A DNA stretch of 29,691 nt, taken from positions 1-29,691 of the forward strand of contig CAZSME010000001.1 of NCBI GenBank assembly GCA_964607665.1, written 5' to 3'. Below, in pieces: positions 372 through 9,241 of the stretch (positions within the stretch are counted from its first letter, which is position 1; each line of letters starts with the position of its first letter). Origin of the DNA: an uncultured Nitrospirota bacterium. Lineage in GTDB: Bacteria > Nitrospirota > Nitrospiria > SBBL01 > SBBA01. The notes under the pieces were generated by a model that saw only the letters and a program-made list of their open reading frames with translations, was not told the origin of the DNA and made no database searches. The position numbers were made by a program, and so were the translations under genes.

Positions 372-1903
372 AACTCGTTTCGATCTTACCGCTCATCGCC
401 CTGCTGATCCCGCTGACTGCGGCAGGACTGATTCTTTTATCGGATAAACGTCCGAATCTCCGAGAGACCTGGTCGATTGTCGCCGGCATCGTTCAGCTTC
501 TGGTTGTGCTTTCGATGGGGCCCGCGATTTTCGCCGGTGAGACAATCGTCTACCCCCTTTACACATTCCTGTTCGGCCTGACAATGAAGCTTCGGGTCGA
601 CGCATTGGGCTTTATGTTTGCCGCGATTGCCTCGTTCCTGTGGATCGTAACGTCGCTCTATTCGATCGGCTATATGCGGGGAAACCACGAGCAACACCAA
701 ACCCGTTACTTCACCTGTTTCGCGCTGGCCCTGTGCTCCACCCTGGGCGTCGCCTTCTCCGCAAATTTGCTGACGCTGTACCTCTTCTATGAAATTCTCT
801 CGCTGATCACCGTTCCGCTGGTCGGACACAAAGAAACGGCCGAGTCTTCCGCGGGTGCGTCGAAATATCTGATCTATCTGGCCGGCACCTCCAAGACCGC
901 GCTTTTGGCGGCGATTGTACTGACATACAGCGTCGCGGGCACGTTAGACTTTGCGGCCAATGGCCTGTTTTCTGGCCTGGAAACCGGACAGGGCCGGATG
1001 AGTTCCGGCATGCTCACGCTCATTTATATCCTCTTTTTAGCCGGATTTGCGAAAGCGGCCATCATGCCGTTACACAGTTGGCTGCCTGCCGCAATGGTCG
1101 CGCCGACACCGGTTTCCGCGCTGTTGCACGCAGTAGCGGTCGTAAAGGTCGGCGTCTTTTGTGTGCTGCGGGTGATCTTACATGTGATCGGTGTTGATCT
1201 GATGGAGGCATTAGACCTGGGGGCTCCGACCGCGTTCTTTGCCTCGTTCACCATCCTGATGGCCTCGATCTATGCCCTCACGCGAGACAATCTCAAGGCG
1301 CGACTGGCCTATTCGACGATCAGCCAGCTCTCGTATGTTATTTTAGGCGGCGCGCTGCTTTCCCCCAGCGGAATCATGGGCGGTATTGTTCATATCGCCG
1401 CGCACGCCTTTTCCAAAATCACCCTCTTCTTCTGCGCCGGATCGATCTATGTGGCAACACACAAAACCAATATCAGCGAGCTTTCCGGCATCGGCCGCAA
1501 AATGCCCTGGACAATGACCGCGTTTACCCTCGGCGCGTTTGGGATGATTGGCGTACCGCCTCTGGCCGGTTTTTTGTCCAAATGGTATCTTGCTGTCGGG
1601 GCGATCGAAGCGCACTCGATCCCGATTCTGATTATTCTACTGGTCAGCACCCTGTTAAATGCCGCCTATTTTATCCCGGTCATCTATAAGGCCTTTTTCG
1701 AGACACCAACCGAGGAGCACGCAACGAGTTGGATTGGAGCGCCTCACCCACAGAGTCTGGGCGCGCACGCGGCGCACGATCCTTCTGATATTAAAGAAAC
1801 CCCGTTCATCGTGGTGCCGTTAACGATAACGGCCATCGGATCGATTTTAATCGGTCTTTTCCCGTATTACGTTCTTGAACTTGCCGAAAAGGTGATCTCA
1901 TAA
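365..1903 (+). CDS. MrpD-like proton-conducting membrane transporter (complex I antiporter-like subunit, MrpD1)
   Basis: 512 aa polytopic protein with LFYEIL (TM5 Glu), GFAKAAIMPLHSWLPAAMVAPTPVSALLHAVAVVKVG, LAYSTISQLSY and GFLSKWYL. No NuoL transverse-helix tail. Overlaps the nuoK stop by 7 nt. Confidence 0.9.
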   Translation: MVELVSILPLIALLIPLTAAGLILLSDKRPNLRETWSIVAGIVQLLVVLSMGPAIFAGETIVYPLYTFLFGLTMKLRVDALGFMFAAIASFLWIVTSLYSIGYMRGNHEQHQTRYFTCFALALCSTLGVAFSANLLTLYLFYEILSLITVPLVGHKETAESSAGASKYLIYLAGTSKTALLAAIVLTYSVAGTLDFAANGLFSGLETGQGRMSSGMLTLIYILFLAGFAKAAIMPLHSWLPAAMVAPTPVSALLHAVAVVKVGVFCVLRVILHVIGVDLMEALDLGAPTAFFASFTILMASIYALTRDNLKARLAYSTISQLSYVILGGALLSPSGIMGGIVHIAAHAFSKITLFFCAGSIYVATHKTNISELSGIGRKMPWTMTAFTLGAFGMIGVPPLAGFLSKWYLAVGAIEAHSIPILIILLVSTLLNAAYFIPVIYKAFFETPTEEHATSWIGAPHPQSLGAHAAHDPSDIKETPFIVVPLTITAIGSILIGLFPYYVLELAEKVIS

Positions 1904-3759
1904 TGGAGTGGTTACATCCATCCGTCTTGTTTTTCCTGGGTGCCGTGCTTCTGCCGTTTGTAAAAGAACGGCAGAGGGGCATCGTGTTAATCGGCGCGCC
2001 GACATTGGCGTTTCTCTCCCTGCTGGTTGTTCCGGAAGGGGATTACGGTCAGATCACGCTGATGGATATGTCGTTGACCTTCGGCCGGGTGGACCGGCTC
2101 AGCCTTCTGTTTGGATATATCTTCACGCTGATTGCGATGATCGGGATGGTCTATTCCCTTCATGTCAAAAAGGTCGCCGAGCATATCGCGGCGCTGCTTT
2201 ACGCGGGATCGGCGTTAGGCGCAGTTTTTTCGGGCGATCTGATTACCCTCTTTCTTTTCTGGGAGGGGATGGCCTTCACCTCCGCGCTTCTGATCTTTTT
2301 GGGCGGGAACAACGCGGCCGCGTTTCGTTACCTGCTGGTCCATATCTTCGGCGGGGTCTGCCTGTTGGGCGGTATCGTGATTCATCTGGCCGCGGGAAAC
2401 GATCCGACCTTCTCGTCTTTTACCGATCTCGGATTTCACGCCGGACAAATGCCGCTTGGCGCCACATTGATCTTAATCGGATTTATCGTGAACGCCGCGG
2501 TTCCACCGATTCACGCGTGGCTTTCCGATGCCTATCCCGAGGCCAGCGTAACCGGGATTGTTTTTTTAAGCGCGTTTACGACGAAAACCGCGGTGTATGT
2601 CCTCGCCCGTGGATTTGCCGGGTTTACACCGTTAGCCTGGCTGGGGGCGGCAATGACCCTTTATGGAGTGCTTTATGCGATGCTGGAAAACGATATCCGA
2701 AGACTGCTGGCCTATCATATTATCAGTCAGGTGGGTTTTATGGTCGCGGGGGTTGGGATTGGCACCGAGATGGCGATCAACGGCGCGGTGGCCCATGCCT
2801 TTGCCCATATTCTTTACAAAGCCCTGCTGATGATGGGAATGAGCTCGGTCCTTTTTATGACCGGAAAAAGAAAGGCCACGGAGCTGGGCGGCCTTTATAA
2901 AGCGATGCCGTTGACCTTCTTCCTTTACATGGTAGGTGGGTTCTCGATTTCCGGTGTCCCGTTTTTGAACGGCTTTATCAGTAAATCGATGACCATTTCC
3001 GCCGCCGCCGAGGCCCATATGATCCCAATTTTTCTGATGATGATGATCGCCTCCTGCGGCACCTTTCTCTCGACGACGCTCAAGTTGCCGTATGCGGTTT
3101 TTTTAGCGGAACGGAAAGGAGAGACCCTAACAGCAACCGACCCCCCTAAAAACATGATCGTCGGAATGGGACTCGCGGCGTCACTTTGTCTGCTGATCGG
3201 CATTGTTCCGAGCCTGCTTTATAATATTCTCCCTCATCCGGTTGATTACCATCCTTACACCGCCGAACATCTTGTCGGCGCGCTTTTGATGCTTTCATTG
3301 ACCGGTGTCGGGTTCTTTCTTTTTCTCAAAACGCTGTCGCCGCACGAAACGATCAGCCTCGATACCGATTGGATCTATCGAAAGGGGGGGGCGTTTTTTC
3401 TTCGTCTGGCGCAGGGGCCGATTTCGGTGTATGAGGCCTTTGTCACTGAATTTTATCGGAACGGGATCATTCGTCCGATGAAGCGGTTTGTTGCCGCATG
3501 TGGGCGTTTTGATCTTTACATCATCGATGGCGCGGTAAACGGCGTGGGGGATGGCGCCTTCGGCGGGGGACGCCTTTCAAACCTGTTTGAGAAATATGTG
3601 GTCTACGGATTCATTAACATGACGGGGTATGCCAATCACCTGGGGGCCAAGCTCTTTCGACGCCTTCAAACCGGCTCGGTCCACAACTACGCGATTATAA
3701 TTATTATTGGCATTTTTTTACTGGTGAATATTTATTTTATTTTCCGAAACCGGCTGTGA
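1903..3759 (+). CDS. MrpD/NuoL hybrid antiporter-like subunit with extended C-terminal transverse helix (MrpD2)
   Basis: 618 aa; FLFWEGM, NAAVPPIHAWLSDAYPEA, RRLLAYHIISQVG, GFISKSM core of the Na+/H+ antiporter subunit D type, plus a NuoL-type tail (FDLYIIDGAVNGVG...RRLQTGSVHNY and a final TM helix). TAATG coupling to the upstream gene. Confidence 0.9.
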   Translation: MEWLHPSVLFFLGAVLLPFVKERQRGIVLIGAPTLAFLSLLVVPEGDYGQITLMDMSLTFGRVDRLSLLFGYIFTLIAMIGMVYSLHVKKVAEHIAALLYAGSALGAVFSGDLITLFLFWEGMAFTSALLIFLGGNNAAAFRYLLVHIFGGVCLLGGIVIHLAAGNDPTFSSFTDLGFHAGQMPLGATLILIGFIVNAAVPPIHAWLSDAYPEASVTGIVFLSAFTTKTAVYVLARGFAGFTPLAWLGAAMTLYGVLYAMLENDIRRLLAYHIISQVGFMVAGVGIGTEMAINGAVAHAFAHILYKALLMMGMSSVLFMTGKRKATELGGLYKAMPLTFFLYMVGGFSISGVPFLNGFISKSMTISAAAEAHMIPIFLMMMIASCGTFLSTTLKLPYAVFLAERKGETLTATDPPKNMIVGMGLAASLCLLIGIVPSLLYNILPHPVDYHPYTAEHLVGALLMLSLTGVGFFLFLKTLSPHETISLDTDWIYRKGGAFFLRLAQGPISVYEAFVTEFYRNGIIRPMKRFVAACGRFDLYIIDGAVNGVGDGAFGGGRLSNLFEKYVVYGFINMTGYANHLGAKLFRRLQTGSVHNYAIIIIIGIFLLVNIYFIFRNRL

Positions 3760-3769
3760 GGCTTCTACC

Positions 3770-3847
3770 GTCATTCCGGCAATGTTTAAGCCGGAATCCA
3801 GAATCTTCAGAAAGGCTGGATTCCGGACAGAGGCATTCCGGAATGAC
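3770..3847. repeat. Family A palindromic repeat (GTCATTCCGG...CCGGAATGAC), full-length copy
   Basis: GTCATTCCGGC-N8-GCCGGAATCCAG...CTGGATTCCGG...CCGGAATGAC; nested inverted repeats with related copies at 9278 and 29420. Confidence 0.9.
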
Positions 3848-3909
3848 AGCAAGAAAAGAACTTTTTATTAAAGTGTAAATGAGTCAACGCAAACTATGTG
3901 AAGAGACCC

Positions 3910-4176
3910 ATGCCGACAATTTCGATGTTTTACGGTATAGTCGTTCGGATCTATTTTGCACCGGGTGAACATAATCCGCCGCATTTCCATGTTTACTACA
4001 ACGAGTACAAGGCGTCAGTGGATATTCGGACATGTGAAATCATAGAAGGCAATCTGCCCCGCAGGCAACAGAAGCTGGTCTTGGCCTGGGCAGAACTTCA
4101 TCAGGAGGAGCTGATGGCAGATTGGAACCTGGTAATGAATGGGGAGAACCCATTCGCGATTCAACCGCTTCAGTAA
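3910..4176 (+). CDS. DUF4160 domain protein (predicted TA-like component)
   Basis: MPTISMFYGIVVRIYF...EHNPPHFHVYY...GNLPRRQQKLVLAWAELHQEELMADW...PFAIQPL is the typical DUF4160 pattern. ATG 3910 is preferred over GTG 3898 because the family typically begins MP.IS.FYGI. Confidence 0.9.
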   Translation: MPTISMFYGIVVRIYFAPGEHNPPHFHVYYNEYKASVDIRTCEIIEGNLPRRQQKLVLAWAELHQEELMADWNLVMNGENPFAIQPLQ

Positions 4177-4188
4177 GGAGGAATAAAA

Positions 4189-4437
4189 ATGCACCCATCC
4201 GTAGTAAAGGTTGTTCCCAACGAAGACTTTACACTTTCAATGGTGTTCAGTAATGGCGAGGAGGGCCTTCTTAACATGAAGCCCTATCTTGATTTTGGGG
4301 TGTTTCAAAAGATTAAGGCATATGGATATTTTAAGCAGGTTCACGTTGCCTTTGACACCATTCAATGGGATTGTGGTGTTGATCTTGATCCGGAGTTTGT
4401 ATACGACAAATGCGAGAAGACCACACATGCAGGGTAA
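4189..4437 (+). CDS. DUF2442 domain protein (partner of DUF4160)
   Basis: V.KV.P..DF.L...FSNGEEG..NMKPYL..GVFQ...F.QV.VAFDTIQW..GVDLDPE..Y; strong SD AAGGAGG upstream. Confidence 0.9.
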   Translation: MHPSVVKVVPNEDFTLSMVFSNGEEGLLNMKPYLDFGVFQKIKAYGYFKQVHVAFDTIQWDCGVDLDPEFVYDKCEKTTHAG

Positions 4438-4512: not shown

Positions 4513-6102
4513 ATGCTAACCACGCTGGGTGAAATTTTTACGATGCATCAGATCGGATTTCCGATCCTGACGCTGATTGTCTTTTTGCCGATCCTCACCG
4601 CGCTTTATCTTTCCCGTCTCAAAGATGAGGGGGAGATGCGGATCTTCGCGGCCTCCGCAACGCTGCTCACCTTCCTCATTTCGTTACTGCTTCCGATCTT
4701 TTTTCAACGCGGCATCGCCGATACGCAGTTTGTCGAACGGCTCCCCTGGATCCCCACCCTGGGCGCCTCGTACCATCTCGGCGTCGATGGGATCAGCCTC
4801 CTGCTGGTCAACCTGACTACTTTTCTTTCGTTTCTCGTCGTTGTGTTTTCATGGGAGGGAATCGCGCATTCGTTCAAACAATATCTGATCTGCCTGCTCG
4901 CCCTCGAAACCACGATGCTGGGTGTTTTTGTCTCACTTGACCTGCTGCTTTTCTTTCTGTTCTGGGAGATCATGCTGATTCCGATGTATTTCCTGATCAA
5001 AGTCTGGGGGGGGGAACGGCGCGATTACGCCTCATTGAAATTTGTCCTCTATACCCTTCTGGGATCGGTGCTGATGCTGATCGGCTTTGTCATCCTCTAT
5101 CTAAACTACCATGAATTCGCAATGCAAAACGCCCTTCCCAGAAAATATTCGTTTGACCTGCTCGACCTTCTGAAAGCGCCAATAACACCGGGCAAGCAAA
5201 TCGGGGTGTTCCTACTCCTTTTCTTCGGATTTGCGTTTAAAGTGCCGATGTTCCCGTTTCATACCTGGCTTCCCGATGCCCATGTTGAGGCGCCAACAGC
5301 CGGATCGGTGCTGCTCGCCGGCGTCTTGCTGAAGATGGGAACATACGGCTTTGTCCGTTTTTCTCTGCCGTTGCTGCCGCAGGCATCACAGGCACTCGCC
5401 CCGTTGATGCTGATGCTAGCGGTGATTGGGATTGTCTATGGCGCGTTGCTGGCGCTGGCCCAGAACGATATGAAAAAGCTGATTGCTTATTCGTCCATCA
5501 GCCATTTGGGATTTGTCATCCTCGGCATTTTCACGTTAAACAAAACGGGGATTTCCGGCGGAATGATCCAGATGATCAATCATGGGATTTCGACCTCCGG
5601 ACTCTTTTTGGTAGTCGGATTTCTTTATAACCGATGTCACACGAAGCTCATTGCCAAATTCGGCGGCCTGGCCAAGCCGGTTCCGATCCTGGCCGGTTTC
5701 TATCTCTTGATCTCTCTTTCATCATTGGCCTTCCCCGGCACAAACGGATTTGTCGGAGAGCTGCTCATTCTATTGGGCGCCGCGGAAAACCACCTGCCGT
5801 ATCTGATCCCCGCTATTTTTGGCGTGCTTTTGGGGGCCGCTTACCTGTTCTGGCTTTATCAACGGGTGATGTTGGGAGAGGTCACGGAAGAAAATGCGAC
5901 GCTGATTGATCTGAACCGCCGAGAGATTGGGATTTGTGCCGCGTTGACTGCCGTCATTCTCTGGGTCGGGATTTATCCGACCCCCTTTGTACGGATAACA
6001 GACGGATCCGTCGGCTATCTCATCTCACGAATGGAAGCCGGCCCGTTGGAAGAGGCGGCGCCGCTGTTGGTAAAAAACGATGGGACAGGAAAAGGTCAAT
6101 GA
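4513..6102 (+). CDS. nuoM: NADH-quinone oxidoreductase subunit M (copy 1, canonical)
   Basis: YHLGVDGISL, FFLFWEIMLIPMYFLI..WGG, FAFKVPMFPFHTWLPDAHVEAPTAGSVLLAGVLLKMGTYG, GFVGELLIL. The start may instead be ATG 4543. Confidence 0.95.
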   Translation: MLTTLGEIFTMHQIGFPILTLIVFLPILTALYLSRLKDEGEMRIFAASATLLTFLISLLLPIFFQRGIADTQFVERLPWIPTLGASYHLGVDGISLLLVNLTTFLSFLVVVFSWEGIAHSFKQYLICLLALETTMLGVFVSLDLLLFFLFWEIMLIPMYFLIKVWGGERRDYASLKFVLYTLLGSVLMLIGFVILYLNYHEFAMQNALPRKYSFDLLDLLKAPITPGKQIGVFLLLFFGFAFKVPMFPFHTWLPDAHVEAPTAGSVLLAGVLLKMGTYGFVRFSLPLLPQASQALAPLMLMLAVIGIVYGALLALAQNDMKKLIAYSSISHLGFVILGIFTLNKTGISGGMIQMINHGISTSGLFLVVGFLYNRCHTKLIAKFGGLAKPVPILAGFYLLISLSSLAFPGTNGFVGELLILLGAAENHLPYLIPAIFGVLLGAAYLFWLYQRVMLGEVTEENATLIDLNRREIGICAALTAVILWVGIYPTPFVRITDGSVGYLISRMEAGPLEEAAPLLVKNDGTGKGQ

Positions 6103-6256: not shown

Positions 6257-7843
6257 ATGACTGAACATCTTTTATCGATCATTCTTTTCGCGCCCTTTGC
6301 CGGGGCCATCCTCCTGTTCTTTGTCGGCAATGACCGCCCCAACATCATCAAGGCGATTACGACTTTTTTCGGGGGCGTCTCGCTTGCCGGCGCCGTTTCA
6401 CTGCTCTACCTCTTCGACTACAACCAGAACAACTTCCAGTTTATTGAACGATGGCCGTGGTCGGACACGTTGGGCATCTCGTTTTATATTGGGGTGGATG
6501 GAGTCGGCGCGCCGATGGTTCTGGCCTCTTCGCTGCTGATGTTTGCCGGCATCTTTGTCTCCTGGCATGTTCAGGACCGGCTTCGTGAATTTTATATCAA
6601 TCTGCTGGTTTTAGGCTCCGCGACGATGGGGGTCTATATGTCGCTCGATCTTTTCTTCCTGTTCTTTTTCTACGAGCTTTCGGTCATTCCGATGTATCTT
6701 TTTATCGCGATCTGGGGACGGCACACCAAGGGGTATCTCGATATGCAGGGAAATCCCACGCGCGACTCCGTCGGCTTTATCTTCAACTTTAATCACAGCA
6801 GCAAAGAGTACGCGGCGATGAAGCTGACGCTTTATATTTCGGCCGGCGCGGTCGCAGCCCTGCTGGGGATTCTGCTGATCTACACCCACTCGGGGCTTCA
6901 GACATTTGATCTTTTAGCCATTATGGAAAAGGGGACGCTTTCGACCGGCATGAAAGAGGTCTGTTTTCTGCTGATCTTTTTGGGTTTCGCGCCAATTGCG
7001 GCGATCTGGCCGTTTCACTCCTGGTCTCCGGTCGGTTATGCCGCCGCGCCCGCAGCCGCCAGCATGATGCACGCAGGGGTATTAAAGAAGCTGGGCCATT
7101 TTTCGATCATTCGAATCGGGTTCACCCTTTTTCCTGAAGCAACGGCCAAATGGATGCCGGTGATTGCCATCCTCTGTATCCTCAATATCGTTTACGGGGG
7201 ACTCGTGGCCTTTTTGCAAAAAGACACCAAGTTTGTGATCGGCTATTCCAGTGTCGCGCACATGGGGTATATCTTTTTGGGGATGGCCTCGCTCAACCTC
7301 ATCAGTCTTACCGGCGCCGTCTTTTTTCTCTTTGCCGACGCGATGGCGATGGGTCTGCTCTTCGCACTTGCCGGACATATTTATTATCAAACCCACACGC
7401 TGGATATCCCTTCGATGGGAGGCCTCGCGCGGAAGATGCCTTTTATTGCGTCGCTTTTTGTGATTGGCTCTGCCGCCTCGTTTGGTCTTCCCGGCGGCAT
7501 GAATTTTATTGGGGAGCTGCTTGTCTTTGTCGGATCGTTTCGGGTCTATCCGGTTCAAACGGTGTTGGCCGCGATGGCGATCACGTTGACCTGGTCGTAT
7601 TATTTTCGCATGATTCGGTCGATCTTTTTTGGAGAGGCCGATCCGGCGATGGCCGATGTCGCGGACGCGACACGGTTCGTGCAGAAATTCCCGTTGATTT
7701 TACTCGCGGCGATGACCCTTTTCTTCGGCATTTTCCCCTCCCCCTTTATCCGGGTAATCCAGTCCGGCGTGATTCCGATCGTCGCAAAGATGGACGCCGG
7801 TTCCCCTCAACCGATAACCCTTATTGGATCAAACACGGAGTAG
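6257..7843 (+). CDS. nuoM: NADH-quinone oxidoreductase subunit M (copy 2, divergent)
   Basis: FYIGVDGVG, FFFYELSVIPMY..IAIWG, WPFHSWSPVGYAAAPAAASMMHAGVLKKLG, NFIGELLVF; 528 aa. Confidence 0.92.
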   Translation: MTEHLLSIILFAPFAGAILLFFVGNDRPNIIKAITTFFGGVSLAGAVSLLYLFDYNQNNFQFIERWPWSDTLGISFYIGVDGVGAPMVLASSLLMFAGIFVSWHVQDRLREFYINLLVLGSATMGVYMSLDLFFLFFFYELSVIPMYLFIAIWGRHTKGYLDMQGNPTRDSVGFIFNFNHSSKEYAAMKLTLYISAGAVAALLGILLIYTHSGLQTFDLLAIMEKGTLSTGMKEVCFLLIFLGFAPIAAIWPFHSWSPVGYAAAPAAASMMHAGVLKKLGHFSIIRIGFTLFPEATAKWMPVIAILCILNIVYGGLVAFLQKDTKFVIGYSSVAHMGYIFLGMASLNLISLTGAVFFLFADAMAMGLLFALAGHIYYQTHTLDIPSMGGLARKMPFIASLFVIGSAASFGLPGGMNFIGELLVFVGSFRVYPVQTVLAAMAITLTWSYYFRMIRSIFFGEADPAMADVADATRFVQKFPLILLAAMTLFFGIFPSPFIRVIQSGVIPIVAKMDAGSPQPITLIGSNTE

Positions 7844-8006: not shown

Positions 8007-8288
8007 ATGTGGCGCATCGAAGAACACCGCCGAGTAGACAAGCAGGTTGCGACCATTCCGAAGGATATTCTCAAGCGATATGAAAAATGGAAGGACATCG
8101 CCAAAATATCCGGTCCGCTTGGGCTTCGTCTTATTCGAGGATTGAATGACGAAGCGCTTCTCGGTGAATGGCGCGGCTATCGCTCATCTCGGCTTGGGCT
8201 TCAGTGGCGTGTTATTTATCGCATCGTTGCTGAAAAACGGCTGTTCCAAATCGCTTCGATAACCGCCCATGATTATCGGAGACCATAA
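8007..8288 (+). CDS. Type II toxin, RelE/HigB/YafQ-like mRNA interferase
   Basis: 93 aa, basic; DEAL.GEW.GYRSSRLGLQWRVIY pattern; directly upstream of an HTH gene. Confidence 0.85.
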   Translation: MWRIEEHRRVDKQVATIPKDILKRYEKWKDIAKISGPLGLRLIRGLNDEALLGEWRGYRSSRLGLQWRVIYRIVAEKRLFQIASITAHDYRRP

Positions 8289-8546
8289 ATGAAAGAGTAT
8301 CGTCCTGCAAAAAAGCGCATCGATGTTTCGGTGGGCGAATCCGTACGAATTCTGCGTGAGCTTCAAGAGCTAAGCCAAAGCCAACTCGCTCGCCGGACCG
8401 GTATTCCACAGGCGACCCTCTCGGCCATTGAGAATGATCGGGTTCGATTAGGTGTGGAACGGGCCAAAGTGCTTGCCAAGGCACTCAAATGCCATCCAGG
8501 GGTTCTTGTGTTTCCGGGTTGGGAACTTCCTAAAGCAGCGGCATAA
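8289..8546 (+). CDS. XRE-family HTH antitoxin (HigA-like)
   Basis: VGESVRILRELQELSQSQLARRTGIPQATLSAIENDR..LGVERAKVLAKAL is an HTH_3 pattern. Toxin-first order with a TAA-ATG junction. Confidence 0.88.
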   Translation: MKEYRPAKKRIDVSVGESVRILRELQELSQSQLARRTGIPQATLSAIENDRVRLGVERAKVLAKALKCHPGVLVFPGWELPKAAA

Positions 8547-8653: not shown

Positions 8654-8678
8654 CTTCCCCCGTTGGGAAAGGATGGGG
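8654..8678. repeat. Degenerate family B-like repeat
   Basis: CTTCCCCCGTTGGGAAAGGATGGGG resembles the 13767-13803 copy. Confidence 0.4.
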
Positions 8679-8707
8679 TCCACTTCAACTTAATTAAGGA
8701 GAGACGG

Positions 8708-9241
8708 ATGAAAATCTTTTTGTTGAGTGTCTTGATGTTGGGATTGACTGTGACCACCTACGCGCAACCGGTGAAGACCGAGCATGATCCATTAAAGCCG
8801 CGGGTCCCACCCGATGAGATTGCGAAGGCAAAAGCGATGAAACCACCGATTCCCGCGACGCCTGAAAATATCGCGGCTGGCAAAGCGCTCTTTACCGGAA
8901 AGGCCACCTGTTTTATCTGCCACGGAATGGAAGGAAAAGGAGACGGGCCATTGGTGATGACCGATCAAGTAACCATTAAGCCTCGCGATTTCACGAATCC
9001 AGCGTTTCACAAGGCAAAGACCTGCGGAGAAATGTTCTGGACCGCCTCCAATGGATCAAAAGGCGATTTTTCCAAGAAGGACGCTCCAAGCCATCCCAAA
9101 GGAACCGGTATGCGGGTTTATCTGATCGGCTCGAAAAATATATTGAAAATGCCGACCATCGACGTGACCCCAACCGTCACGGAGAAAGAGCTCTGGCAGA
9201 TCGTTTTATTTGAACGAAGCCTGGGCAAAGGCACCTGCTAG
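8708..9241 (+). CDS. Periplasmic monoheme cytochrome c
   Basis: Signal peptide MKIFLLSVLMLGLTVTTYA, heme motif CFICH, G.GDGP, PRDFT, and candidate axial Met in GTGM. SD AAGGAG precedes ATG 8708. Confidence 0.92.
   Translation: MKIFLLSVLMLGLTVTTYAQPVKTEHDPLKPRVPPDEIAKAKAMKPPIPATPENIAAGKALFTGKATCFICHGMEGKGDGPLVMTDQVTIKPRDFTNPAFHKAKTCGEMFWTASNGSKGDFSKKDAPSHPKGTGMRVYLIGSKNILKMPTIDVTPTVTEKELWQIVLFERSLGKGTC

Follow-up and report, generated by a model that had tools for sequence, protein, structure and literature searches.

How many antiporter-like subunits does the membrane arm of a complex I contain, and can that number be read from the length of the helix that clamps them together? The question is raised by a 29,691-nucleotide stretch of DNA from an uncultured Nitrospirota bacterium (contig CAZSME010000001.1; hereafter the window), which encodes a 618-residue antiporter-like subunit of the MrpD2 type with a long C-terminal helix. 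A first-pass annotation of this gene proposed that an MrpD-type core had acquired a NuoL-type clamp, that the clamp carries two more 26-residue units than canonical NuoL, and that its length is a ruler predicting five pumps. The explanation that we favor, and consider likely, is that the region at 3367-3759 is the C-terminal clamp, a lateral helix (HL) followed by transmembrane helix 16 (TM16), of an MrpD2-type subunit in a complex I of the type published as Complex_I_3. An old tandem duplication lengthened HL by 26 residues, and the extra unit would reach across an added NuoM. All features of the window given below lie on the forward (+) strand.

The MrpD2 gene (1903-3759) was assigned by its NCBIfam match, an AlphaFold2 model and fold matches. 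The protein scores 690.9 bits on the NCBIfam model PRK12668 ('Na+/H+ antiporter subunit D'; cut-off 564), with residues 2-593 on profile positions 5-566 of 584, and is about 30 residues longer than the profile within the matched stretch. Its core matches Pfam PF00361 (Proton_antipo_M; E 3e-43). The AlphaFold2 model, run on a 95-sequence alignment (mean predicted local distance difference test (pLDDT) score 88), has 15 transmembrane helices, then a continuous helix at residues 490-588 and a final transmembrane helix at 593-617. TM7 (185-197, 205-213) and TM12 (336-349, 356-370) are broken, as in all antiporter-like subunits. We placed TM15 at residues 454-473 (nt 3262-3321) from DSSP on the model and hydropathy, HL at residues 490-588 (nt 3370-3666) from DSSP and hydrophobic moment, and TM16 at residues 593-617 (nt 3679-3753) from DSSP and its alignment with TM16 of Nqo12 and NuoL; an LQTG motif at residue 588 (nt 3664-3675) precedes TM16. 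The best Foldseek matches of the model in the PDB are MrpA (6Z16 and 7QRU, the best in fold), NdhF, NuoL and Nqo12, all of them clamp-bearing 'L-type' subunits. The tail is, as the first reading had it, a lateral clamp helix of the NuoL type.

The core carries different signatures. In our residue map MrpD2 carries Lys228 on TM8 and Leu222 where the His would stand; this helix has His in NuoL and MrpA but Lys in MrpD (PMC7419157). By this rule the core is MrpD-like on TM8, in agreement with its earlier assignment as an MrpD-type core. No Pfam match to Proton_antipo_N (PF00662) was found in the 618 residues. Both L-type hallmarks, the Proton_antipo_N domain and the TM8 His, are absent from MrpD2 and present in the neighboring MrpD1, whose key residues are L-type (E143, K230, H255, H343, H347, K351 and K406) and which is without a lateral helix. 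The H, H, K pattern on TM11 is common to MrpD2, MrpD1 and canonical NuoL-type subunits. The idea that an MrpD-type core acquired its clamp fares less well: the best sequence match among solved structures, MbsH' of the Pyrococcus MBS (6U8Y chain X; E 2e-38), also has the TM15-HL-TM16 layout (PMC7684303). The helices of MbsH' and MrpA are much shorter and span two subunits, and MrpA has an added C-terminal domain.

HL, amphipathic by its hydrophobic moment, is modeled as one continuous 99-residue helix, which places the extra segment inside an unbroken helix, as expected at the outset. Taking 1.5 Å per residue, its length computes to ~148 Å, compared to 110 Å for a helix of 73 residues, and the fold matches suggest that it runs parallel to the membrane. 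In the ORF, DWIYR begins at residue 489 (nt 3367), TEFYR at 515, FDLYIIDGAVNGVG at 536 (nt 3508), FEKYVVYGFINMTG at 562 (nt 3586) and LQTG at 588 (nt 3664); the count of 99 codons from D489 to L588, within a region that makes up the last 131 codons, was correct. A 26-residue periodicity had been read from these motifs, and it is real. In a BLOSUM62 self-comparison of residues 489-600, lag 26 peaks at z = 5.2, a value reached in 0 of 2000 shuffles, and on column profiles from 95 homologs it reaches z = 6.4. However, nearly all of the signal is due to a single pair of neighboring units, 541-566 versus 567-592 (profile z = 5.7), which bears the FDLY.../FEKY... motifs. The other unit pairs are no more than suggestive (profile z = 2.1 for DWIYR/TEFYR and 2.5 for the next pair), and FEKY to LQTG is a distance of 26 residues, not a repeated motif. 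At lag 52 the single sequence gives z = 0.8, which is not significant; on profiles the value is weak (z = 2.1).

Two copies of the unit can be delimited. Copy 1, the canonical IDGxVNG unit that starts with FDLYIIDGAVNGVG (residues 536-561, nt 3508-3585), is supported by the lag-26 profile score and by alignment to NuoL, NdhF and Nqo12; copy 2, a degenerate unit that starts with FEKYVVYGFINMTG (residues 562-587, nt 3586-3663), is supported by a MAFFT alignment of tails and by tblastn. The duplicated unit postulated from the single sequence is therefore present in both the lag-26 profile and the tail alignment. Between them, the two copies explain the 26-residue insertion relative to rhizobial MrpD2. 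Repeat searches of nt 3300-3800 found no repeat at the DNA level, and the duplication must therefore be old. Judged from these comparisons, a single, old tandem duplication of 26 residues lies within a helix whose background rhythm of 26 residues is faint.

The position of the insertion is clear from comparison with MrpD2 in rhizobial 'green complex I', a member of the same PRK12668 family that is ~50-52% identical over residues 1-597. In the MAFFT alignment, rhizobial MrpD2 is gapped by exactly 26 residues, immediately past IDGxVNG, relative to the tails of the window, of Ca. Manganitrophus, of a 72% identical orthologue (L090), and of P0118 and P0043, which include a 'Deltaproteobacteria' protein from a metagenome-assembled genome (MAG) and a Nitrospiria protein. 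Window residues 548-573 are the ones that face the gap, which the P0053 tail shares with the rhizobial tails. A tblastn search of rhizobial plasmids agrees, pairing 597 residues of the query with 565-571 on the rhizobial side. The green type shares with the window the order TM15, DTDWFYRKG, helix, LQTG, TM16, and an Asn at the TM7 lysine position. Unlike the window, it has a 73-residue helix with a single IDGxVNG unit, one NuoM and so four pumps, and usually an 84-residue small ORF.

A helix of the longer kind has been described before. Complex_I_3 of Ca. Manganitrophaceae consists of two MrpD, two NuoM and one NuoN, with a lateral-helix insertion in MrpD2 that was read as accommodating the second NuoM; the type is a hybrid of rhizobial 'green' complex I and the Nitrospira 2M complex I (Yu et al., 2022, mBio; PMC9040806). 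Its MrpD2 (P0017, P0018) is 65-66% identical to the window protein, whose closest relatives are Nitrospirota MAG proteins at 70-80% identity. The window shares with Complex_I_3 the 26-residue insertion at the same place after IDGxVNG, the neighbors nuoK, mrpD1 and two nuoM, and a second NuoM with the same K-to-I and H-to-D substitutions. It differs in having neither nuoN nor the 86-residue small ORF between mrpD1 and mrpD2, and in its inserted toxin-antitoxin pairs. Complex_I_3 was reported as confined to Manganitrophaceae among the Nitrospirota analyzed (PMC9040806); the window places a feature of this type in another, non-Manganitrophaceae lineage of the phylum. NuoL of the Nitrospira 2M complex I, compared here by its description, likewise pairs one ~26-residue lateral-helix insertion with a second nuoM (Chadwick et al., 2018, as cited in PMC9040806), and nuoM genes of the window type belong to the Nitrospira 2M lineage (PMC9040806). 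In the 2M complex the clamp is on a true NuoL, whereas the window has MrpD1 and MrpD2 in place of NuoL.

Our survey took in ~170 loci (GTDB genomes, JGI metagenomes, contig look-ups); genes were classed by phmmer against reference subunits, and helices by the distance from DTDW to LQTG. Antiporter-like genes were counted in complete nuo-linked clusters, and the operon counts are lower bounds (compare L091 and the window). The 43 complete clusters with a helix of the 73-residue, rhizobial class include 37 with four antiporter-like genes (mrpD1, mrpD2, nuoM and nuoN), six with two or three, and none with five. In the 99-residue class, five such genes are found in L087 (Manganitrophus), L090, L103, L171, L172 and L176, four in L088, L093, L173 and the window, and one in L091, which has nuoJ-nuoK-mrpD2 alone. 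Five-gene operons thus accompany the 99-class helix in 6 of 11 cases versus 0 of 43 for the 73 class (Fisher p = 2e-5, kinship ignored), and the association of the extra unit with five-pump operons is real. The orthologous five-gene operons L090, L087, L171, L172 and L176 encode two MrpD, two NuoM and NuoN; L090 has the order J-K-D1-D2-M-M-N, as in the window, plus nuoN directly 3' of the second nuoM. The prediction of five pumps therefore holds for orthologous operons but not demonstrably for the window, which has four antiporter-like genes and is without nuoN. Five is reached because the rhizobial-type baseline, with its canonical-length helix, already has four pumps. In L176 the second NuoM was duplicated independently; it is 48% identical to the M1 type, retains key residues and again accompanies a 99-class helix, which argues for a functional link. 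L176 (GCA_016212985.1, 1-16610, a 'Deltaproteobacteria' MAG) has its five-antiporter operon together with nuoE, F, G and H; this operon appears convergent with the Nitrospirota type, and its second NuoM appears to be a recent independent duplicate.

Even so, helix length is not a dependable ruler of pump number. Unit number and antiporter gene number are associated across genomes, as the first-pass annotation supposed, but four genes occur with 99-class helices and also with helices of ~125 residues, in L002/L003 (which have no mrpD1) and L004. Of the other ~125-class loci, L175 has five genes, its mrpD1 cut by the contig end, and L174 is incomplete, also cut by the contig end. No surveyed locus has a helix too short for its gene number, and several operons have one that is too long, by one or two units. 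We considered the ~125 class as a mark of six-pump operons and rejected it, as those operons carry four or five antiporter genes. The MrpD2 proteins with ~125-residue helices (L002 10001-11953, L175 815-2764, L004 3422-5347) have three IDGxVNG-type units, and the second insertion differs in position between lineages. L002, L003 and L174 lack mrpD1 (nuoK-small ORF-mrpD2-M-M-N).

In a rival explanation, the extra 26 residues would be unrelated to subunit number. They could be a tolerated lineage-specific duplication, or serve some other contact (dimer, supercomplex or lipid), with the link to a second NuoM reflecting shared ancestry. One insertion occurs with four pump genes in L088, L093 and L173, and two insertions with four genes in L002 and L004; a similar insertion in NuoL of clusters without a second NuoM has been reported (Yu et al., 2022; PMC9040806); HL of MBS forms a dimer contact (PMC7684303); and steps of 26 residues could come from unequal crossing-over between existing repeats rather than from selection. 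We nonetheless consider this explanation unlikely. A short helix is found in no five-pump operon (0 of 43), the independent second NuoM of L176 again comes with a 99-class helix, insertion sites differ by lineage while the size stays at ~26, and 26 residues at 1.5 Å each is about the width of one subunit.

A more speculative account, to which we give only an outside chance, takes the over-long helices as its starting point. The lateral helix of MrpD2-type subunits would be quantized in ~26-residue steps (73, 99 and ~125), gained independently and at different positions in several phyla. Lengthening may then precede and permit the capture of extra subunits, or the over-long forms may recruit subunits encoded elsewhere, giving arms of up to six. 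A corollary would be an MrpD1 located beyond the clamp, at the distal tip; if true, an L-type MrpD1 distal to the clamp would be a membrane-arm architecture seen in no solved complex.

The proposal that HL has two extra units, spans all five subunits in the order MrpD2-MrpD1-M-M-N, with MrpD2 distal, and acts as a strict ruler of pump number is, in our assessment, very improbable. It does have numbers behind it. D489 to L588 is 99 residues and D542 to S586 of E. coli NuoL is 44 (close to the ~45 given in the first-pass annotation); DWIYR and TEFYR are weakly alike; TM15 and TM16 are separated by 76 residues in E. coli, by 91 in rhizobial MrpD2 and by 117 in the window, which exceeds E. coli by 41, more than one unit; and five-pump orthologous operons exist. 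However, the E. coli span is not the equivalent one, and DWIY is not matched to FDWLY. A profile of 21 tails of the one-unit-shorter (73) class, searched against solved-structure sequences, matched NdhF (E 4e-9), M. smegmatis NuoL (5e-8), Paracoccus NuoL (3e-6) and T. thermophilus Nqo12 (0.014); MbsH' and MrpA were not detected in this search. In every alignment the canonical FDxxYxxxFxxP motif (e.g. Paracoccus 'fdeiYefifvrP') falls on profile positions 41-52, which correspond to TEFYRNGIIRP of the window (515-525) and not to DWIYR (489). Nqo12 533-604 is colinear with profile positions 40-112, and the rhizobial-type tail is therefore canonical in length from the motif to its end; Paracoccus NuoL 624-698 and NdhF are colinear with it too.

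Measured from the matched motif, the span E516-L588 comes to 72 residues and that of E. coli to 44, a difference of one 26-residue unit plus 2. The DWIY unit itself has a positional counterpart in E. coli, the 25 residues from the end of TM15 (515) to F541 of FDWLY, as placed in a model of low confidence: AlphaFold2 on a shallow enterobacterial alignment gave a poor E. coli NuoL (pLDDT 59) that weakly indicates a helix start near residue 516. The green-type helix of 73 residues is already of canonical length and yet belongs to four-pump operons, and a strict ruler fails in L088, L093, L173, L002 and L004. By the profile alignment, the excess over canonical NuoL is one unit, not the two proposed, which is an outcome that the first-pass annotation itself had named as refuting its claim, and HL is 26 residues (~39 Å, roughly the width of one subunit) longer than both canonical NuoL and green-type MrpD2. 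Direct comparison with the tail was less informative. As the IDGxVNG motif is missing in E. coli, hhalign gave no significant match (E 0.03-0.14) between the MrpD2 tail profile and an enterobacterial NuoL tail profile; in phmmer searches of the PDB, whole-protein alignments do not extend into the tail, and a search with just the window tail shows weak similarity to Nqo12 (E 0.3). Canonical NuoL, Nqo12, ND5 and NdhF share the TM15-HL-TM16 layout and a homologous tail that runs from FDxxY...P through IDGxVNG and LQTG to TM16. MrpD2 of the window differs from them in its missing Proton_antipo_N match, Lys rather than His on TM8, Asn at the TM7 lysine and 26 more residues of helix.

How would such a clamp be arranged? 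HL of E. coli is said by Efremov and Sazanov to measure 110 Å. A 73-residue helix, at ~110 Å, equals the canonical NuoL helix that spans three subunits, yet it occurs where four are encoded; the 99-residue type would therefore span four of five. HL thus probably does not span all five subunits. The old duplication of the IDGxVNG unit added 26 residues to the helix, and the most likely role of the extra unit would be to extend the reach of the clamp across the additional NuoM. MrpD1 has the hallmarks of a terminal L-type subunit and MrpD2 has the MrpD-like Lys on TM8, and it is therefore MrpD1 that would be left out. We infer, as the simplest order from proximal to distal, NuoN, NuoM2, NuoM1, MrpD2 and MrpD1, in which HL would contact MrpD2, both NuoM and NuoN, with the L-type MrpD1 out of reach at the distal tip. 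This arrangement is not the one proposed in the first-pass annotation.

Not all five subunits may pump. NuoM copy 1 keeps all key residues in our residue map (E152, K243, K274, H357 and E416), but copy 2 has Ile247 in place of the TM7 Lys (K234 of E. coli NuoM) and Asp361 in place of the TM11 His (H348). Both substitutions are also present in L090, Manganitrophus (L087), L171 and L002, and the first in L172; the second NuoM of L176 has neither. MrpD2 has N197 (nt 2491-2493) at the TM7 lysine position (K229 of NuoL, K234 of NuoM), an Asn that is at least 90% conserved in the family, rhizobial members included; NuoL, NuoM, NuoN and MbsH' carry the lysine there. Going by these residues, 'five pumps' may overstate the number of working channels.

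Several observations weigh against the explanation that we favor. Antiporter-like genes number only four in the window, where nuoN is missing. Three complete 99-class operons (L088, L093 and L173) hold four pump genes, as do the operons of L002/L003 and L004 with their still longer helices. The pLDDT of HL is only 60-83, and its membrane-parallel course and length come from calculation and fold matches. The TM7 lysine is absent from both the second NuoM and MrpD2. Finally, complex I of the MrpD1/MrpD2 kind is not known to have an experimental structure or a multimer model.

The gene context identifies the system. From 5' to 3', the cluster begins with nuoK (69-371; 100 residues; Pfam Oxidored_q2, E 2e-29, and NCBIfam NuoK models) and continues with mrpD1 (365-1903; 512 residues; NCBIfam PRK08375.1-1, 711 bits against a cut-off of 663, and Pfam Proton_antipo_N), mrpD2, nuoM copy 1 (4513-6102; 529 residues; TIGR01972, 584 bits) and nuoM copy 2 (6257-7843; 528 residues; TIGR01972, 414 bits). 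This is likely a complex I membrane-arm cluster of the Complex_I_3 type. That the genes instead belong to a stand-alone Mrp-type cation/proton antiporter or another MrpD-containing complex is scarcely credible and was rejected on gene context: NCBIfam does name both proteins 'Na+/H+ antiporter subunit D', and MrpD-like pairs do occur in other Nitrospirota complexes such as TO_2 (PMC9040806), but nuoK lies immediately upstream with overlapping reading frames, two nuoM lie downstream, Pfam and NCBIfam searches of the window found no mrpB, C, E, F or G, and orthologues are in full nuoA-D, G-like, I, J, K or nuoD-K clusters.

The window begins 68 nt upstream of nuoK. Only nuoJ lies upstream of nuoK in L090, and the other redox-module genes (nuoA-D, G-like and nuoI) therefore lie elsewhere in this lineage. 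A toxin-antitoxin-like pair, a DUF4160/DhiT-like gene (3898-4176) and a DUF2442 gene (4189-4437; Pfam and NCBIfam), separates mrpD2 from nuoM; L090 has no such pair there. A second pair, a RelE-like toxin (8007-8288) and a helix-turn-helix (HTH) antitoxin (8289-8546; NCBIfam and Pfam), lies directly 3' of the second nuoM, the position of nuoN in L090. Searches of the window by tblastn with nuoN of L090 and L087 found neither nuoN nor a remnant, matching only the four paralogous antiporter-like genes. Either nuoN is encoded elsewhere in the genome or the cluster may be decaying. Toxin-antitoxin-type genes also lie at cluster edges in the relatives L089 (HicB) and L090 (RelB).

Extra antiporter-like subunits in complex I are thought to change its proton-to-electron ratio, and with a changed ratio, chemolithoautotrophs that use very weak electron donors would be able to drive electron flow in reverse. 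In this context, it matters that the manganese oxidizers in which the five-subunit MrpD/2M hybrid was first described are not its only hosts: our survey places it in other Nitrospirota MAGs, and in a 'Deltaproteobacteria' MAG where NuoM was duplicated independently and the NADH module is full. Energetics inferred from genomes call for caution on two counts, as pump number is not predictable from helix length alone, common as that shortcut is, and two of five subunits lack a normally essential lysine. Conceptually the advance is modest, since lengthening the clamp to take in more subunits is a mechanism known from the literature: both the 26-residue insertion (PMC9040806) and the idea that HL length matches subunit number (PMC7684303) were published before.

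Downstream of the complex I genes, at 8663-9241, is a gene for a c-type cytochrome that resembles cytochrome 579, with a sub-threshold match to the NCBIfam 'cytochrome 579' model (120 bits against a cut-off of 280). The cytochrome 579 family is known from iron-oxidizing Leptospirillum. pabB comes next, and the remainder of the contig (9316-29352) holds ordinary genes: besides pabB, these encode a class IV aminotransferase, a CNNM/CorC transporter, DUF169 and DUF520 proteins, a chagasin-like inhibitor, an ABC-2 transporter with GldG-like and DUF4340 proteins, a TgpA transglutaminase, DUF58 and MoxR AAA module, RelA/SpoT, a sigma-70 factor and a phosphoribosyltransferase.

The survey also turned up features of related clusters. 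In the Nitrospirota clusters L002, L087, L171 and L172 (nuoA-D, G-like, I, J, K), a NuoG-like protein of 920-936 residues is encoded between nuoD and nuoI, where nuoH (PF00146) was not called, and nuoE and nuoF are absent. Most green-type operons encode a conserved membrane protein of ~84-105 residues, with no Pfam match, between mrpD1 and mrpD2 (L086 11748-12002; L087 9748-10008; L004 3172-3429; L002 9694-10008). The end of this small ORF overlaps the start of mrpD2, and its product, which bears the motif ..FFWDxIPGF..ISKxLGHxxLMRKEDYYD, is a candidate extra subunit of the complex; it is absent from the window, L090 and L171. In L033, L049, L071 and L077 (Desulfobacterota and archaeal MAGs) we found mrpD1-mrpD1-small-mrpD2-small-mrpD2 arrays without nuo genes. 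Their MrpD2-like tails have no IDGxVNG or LQTG and end in ..YDENxYRRPIG plus a transmembrane helix, and these arrays are a different, uncharacterized context for the MrpD2-type core family. Other forms of this core include tail-less proteins of ~501 residues and proteins of 745-765 residues with MbhD/MbhE domains.

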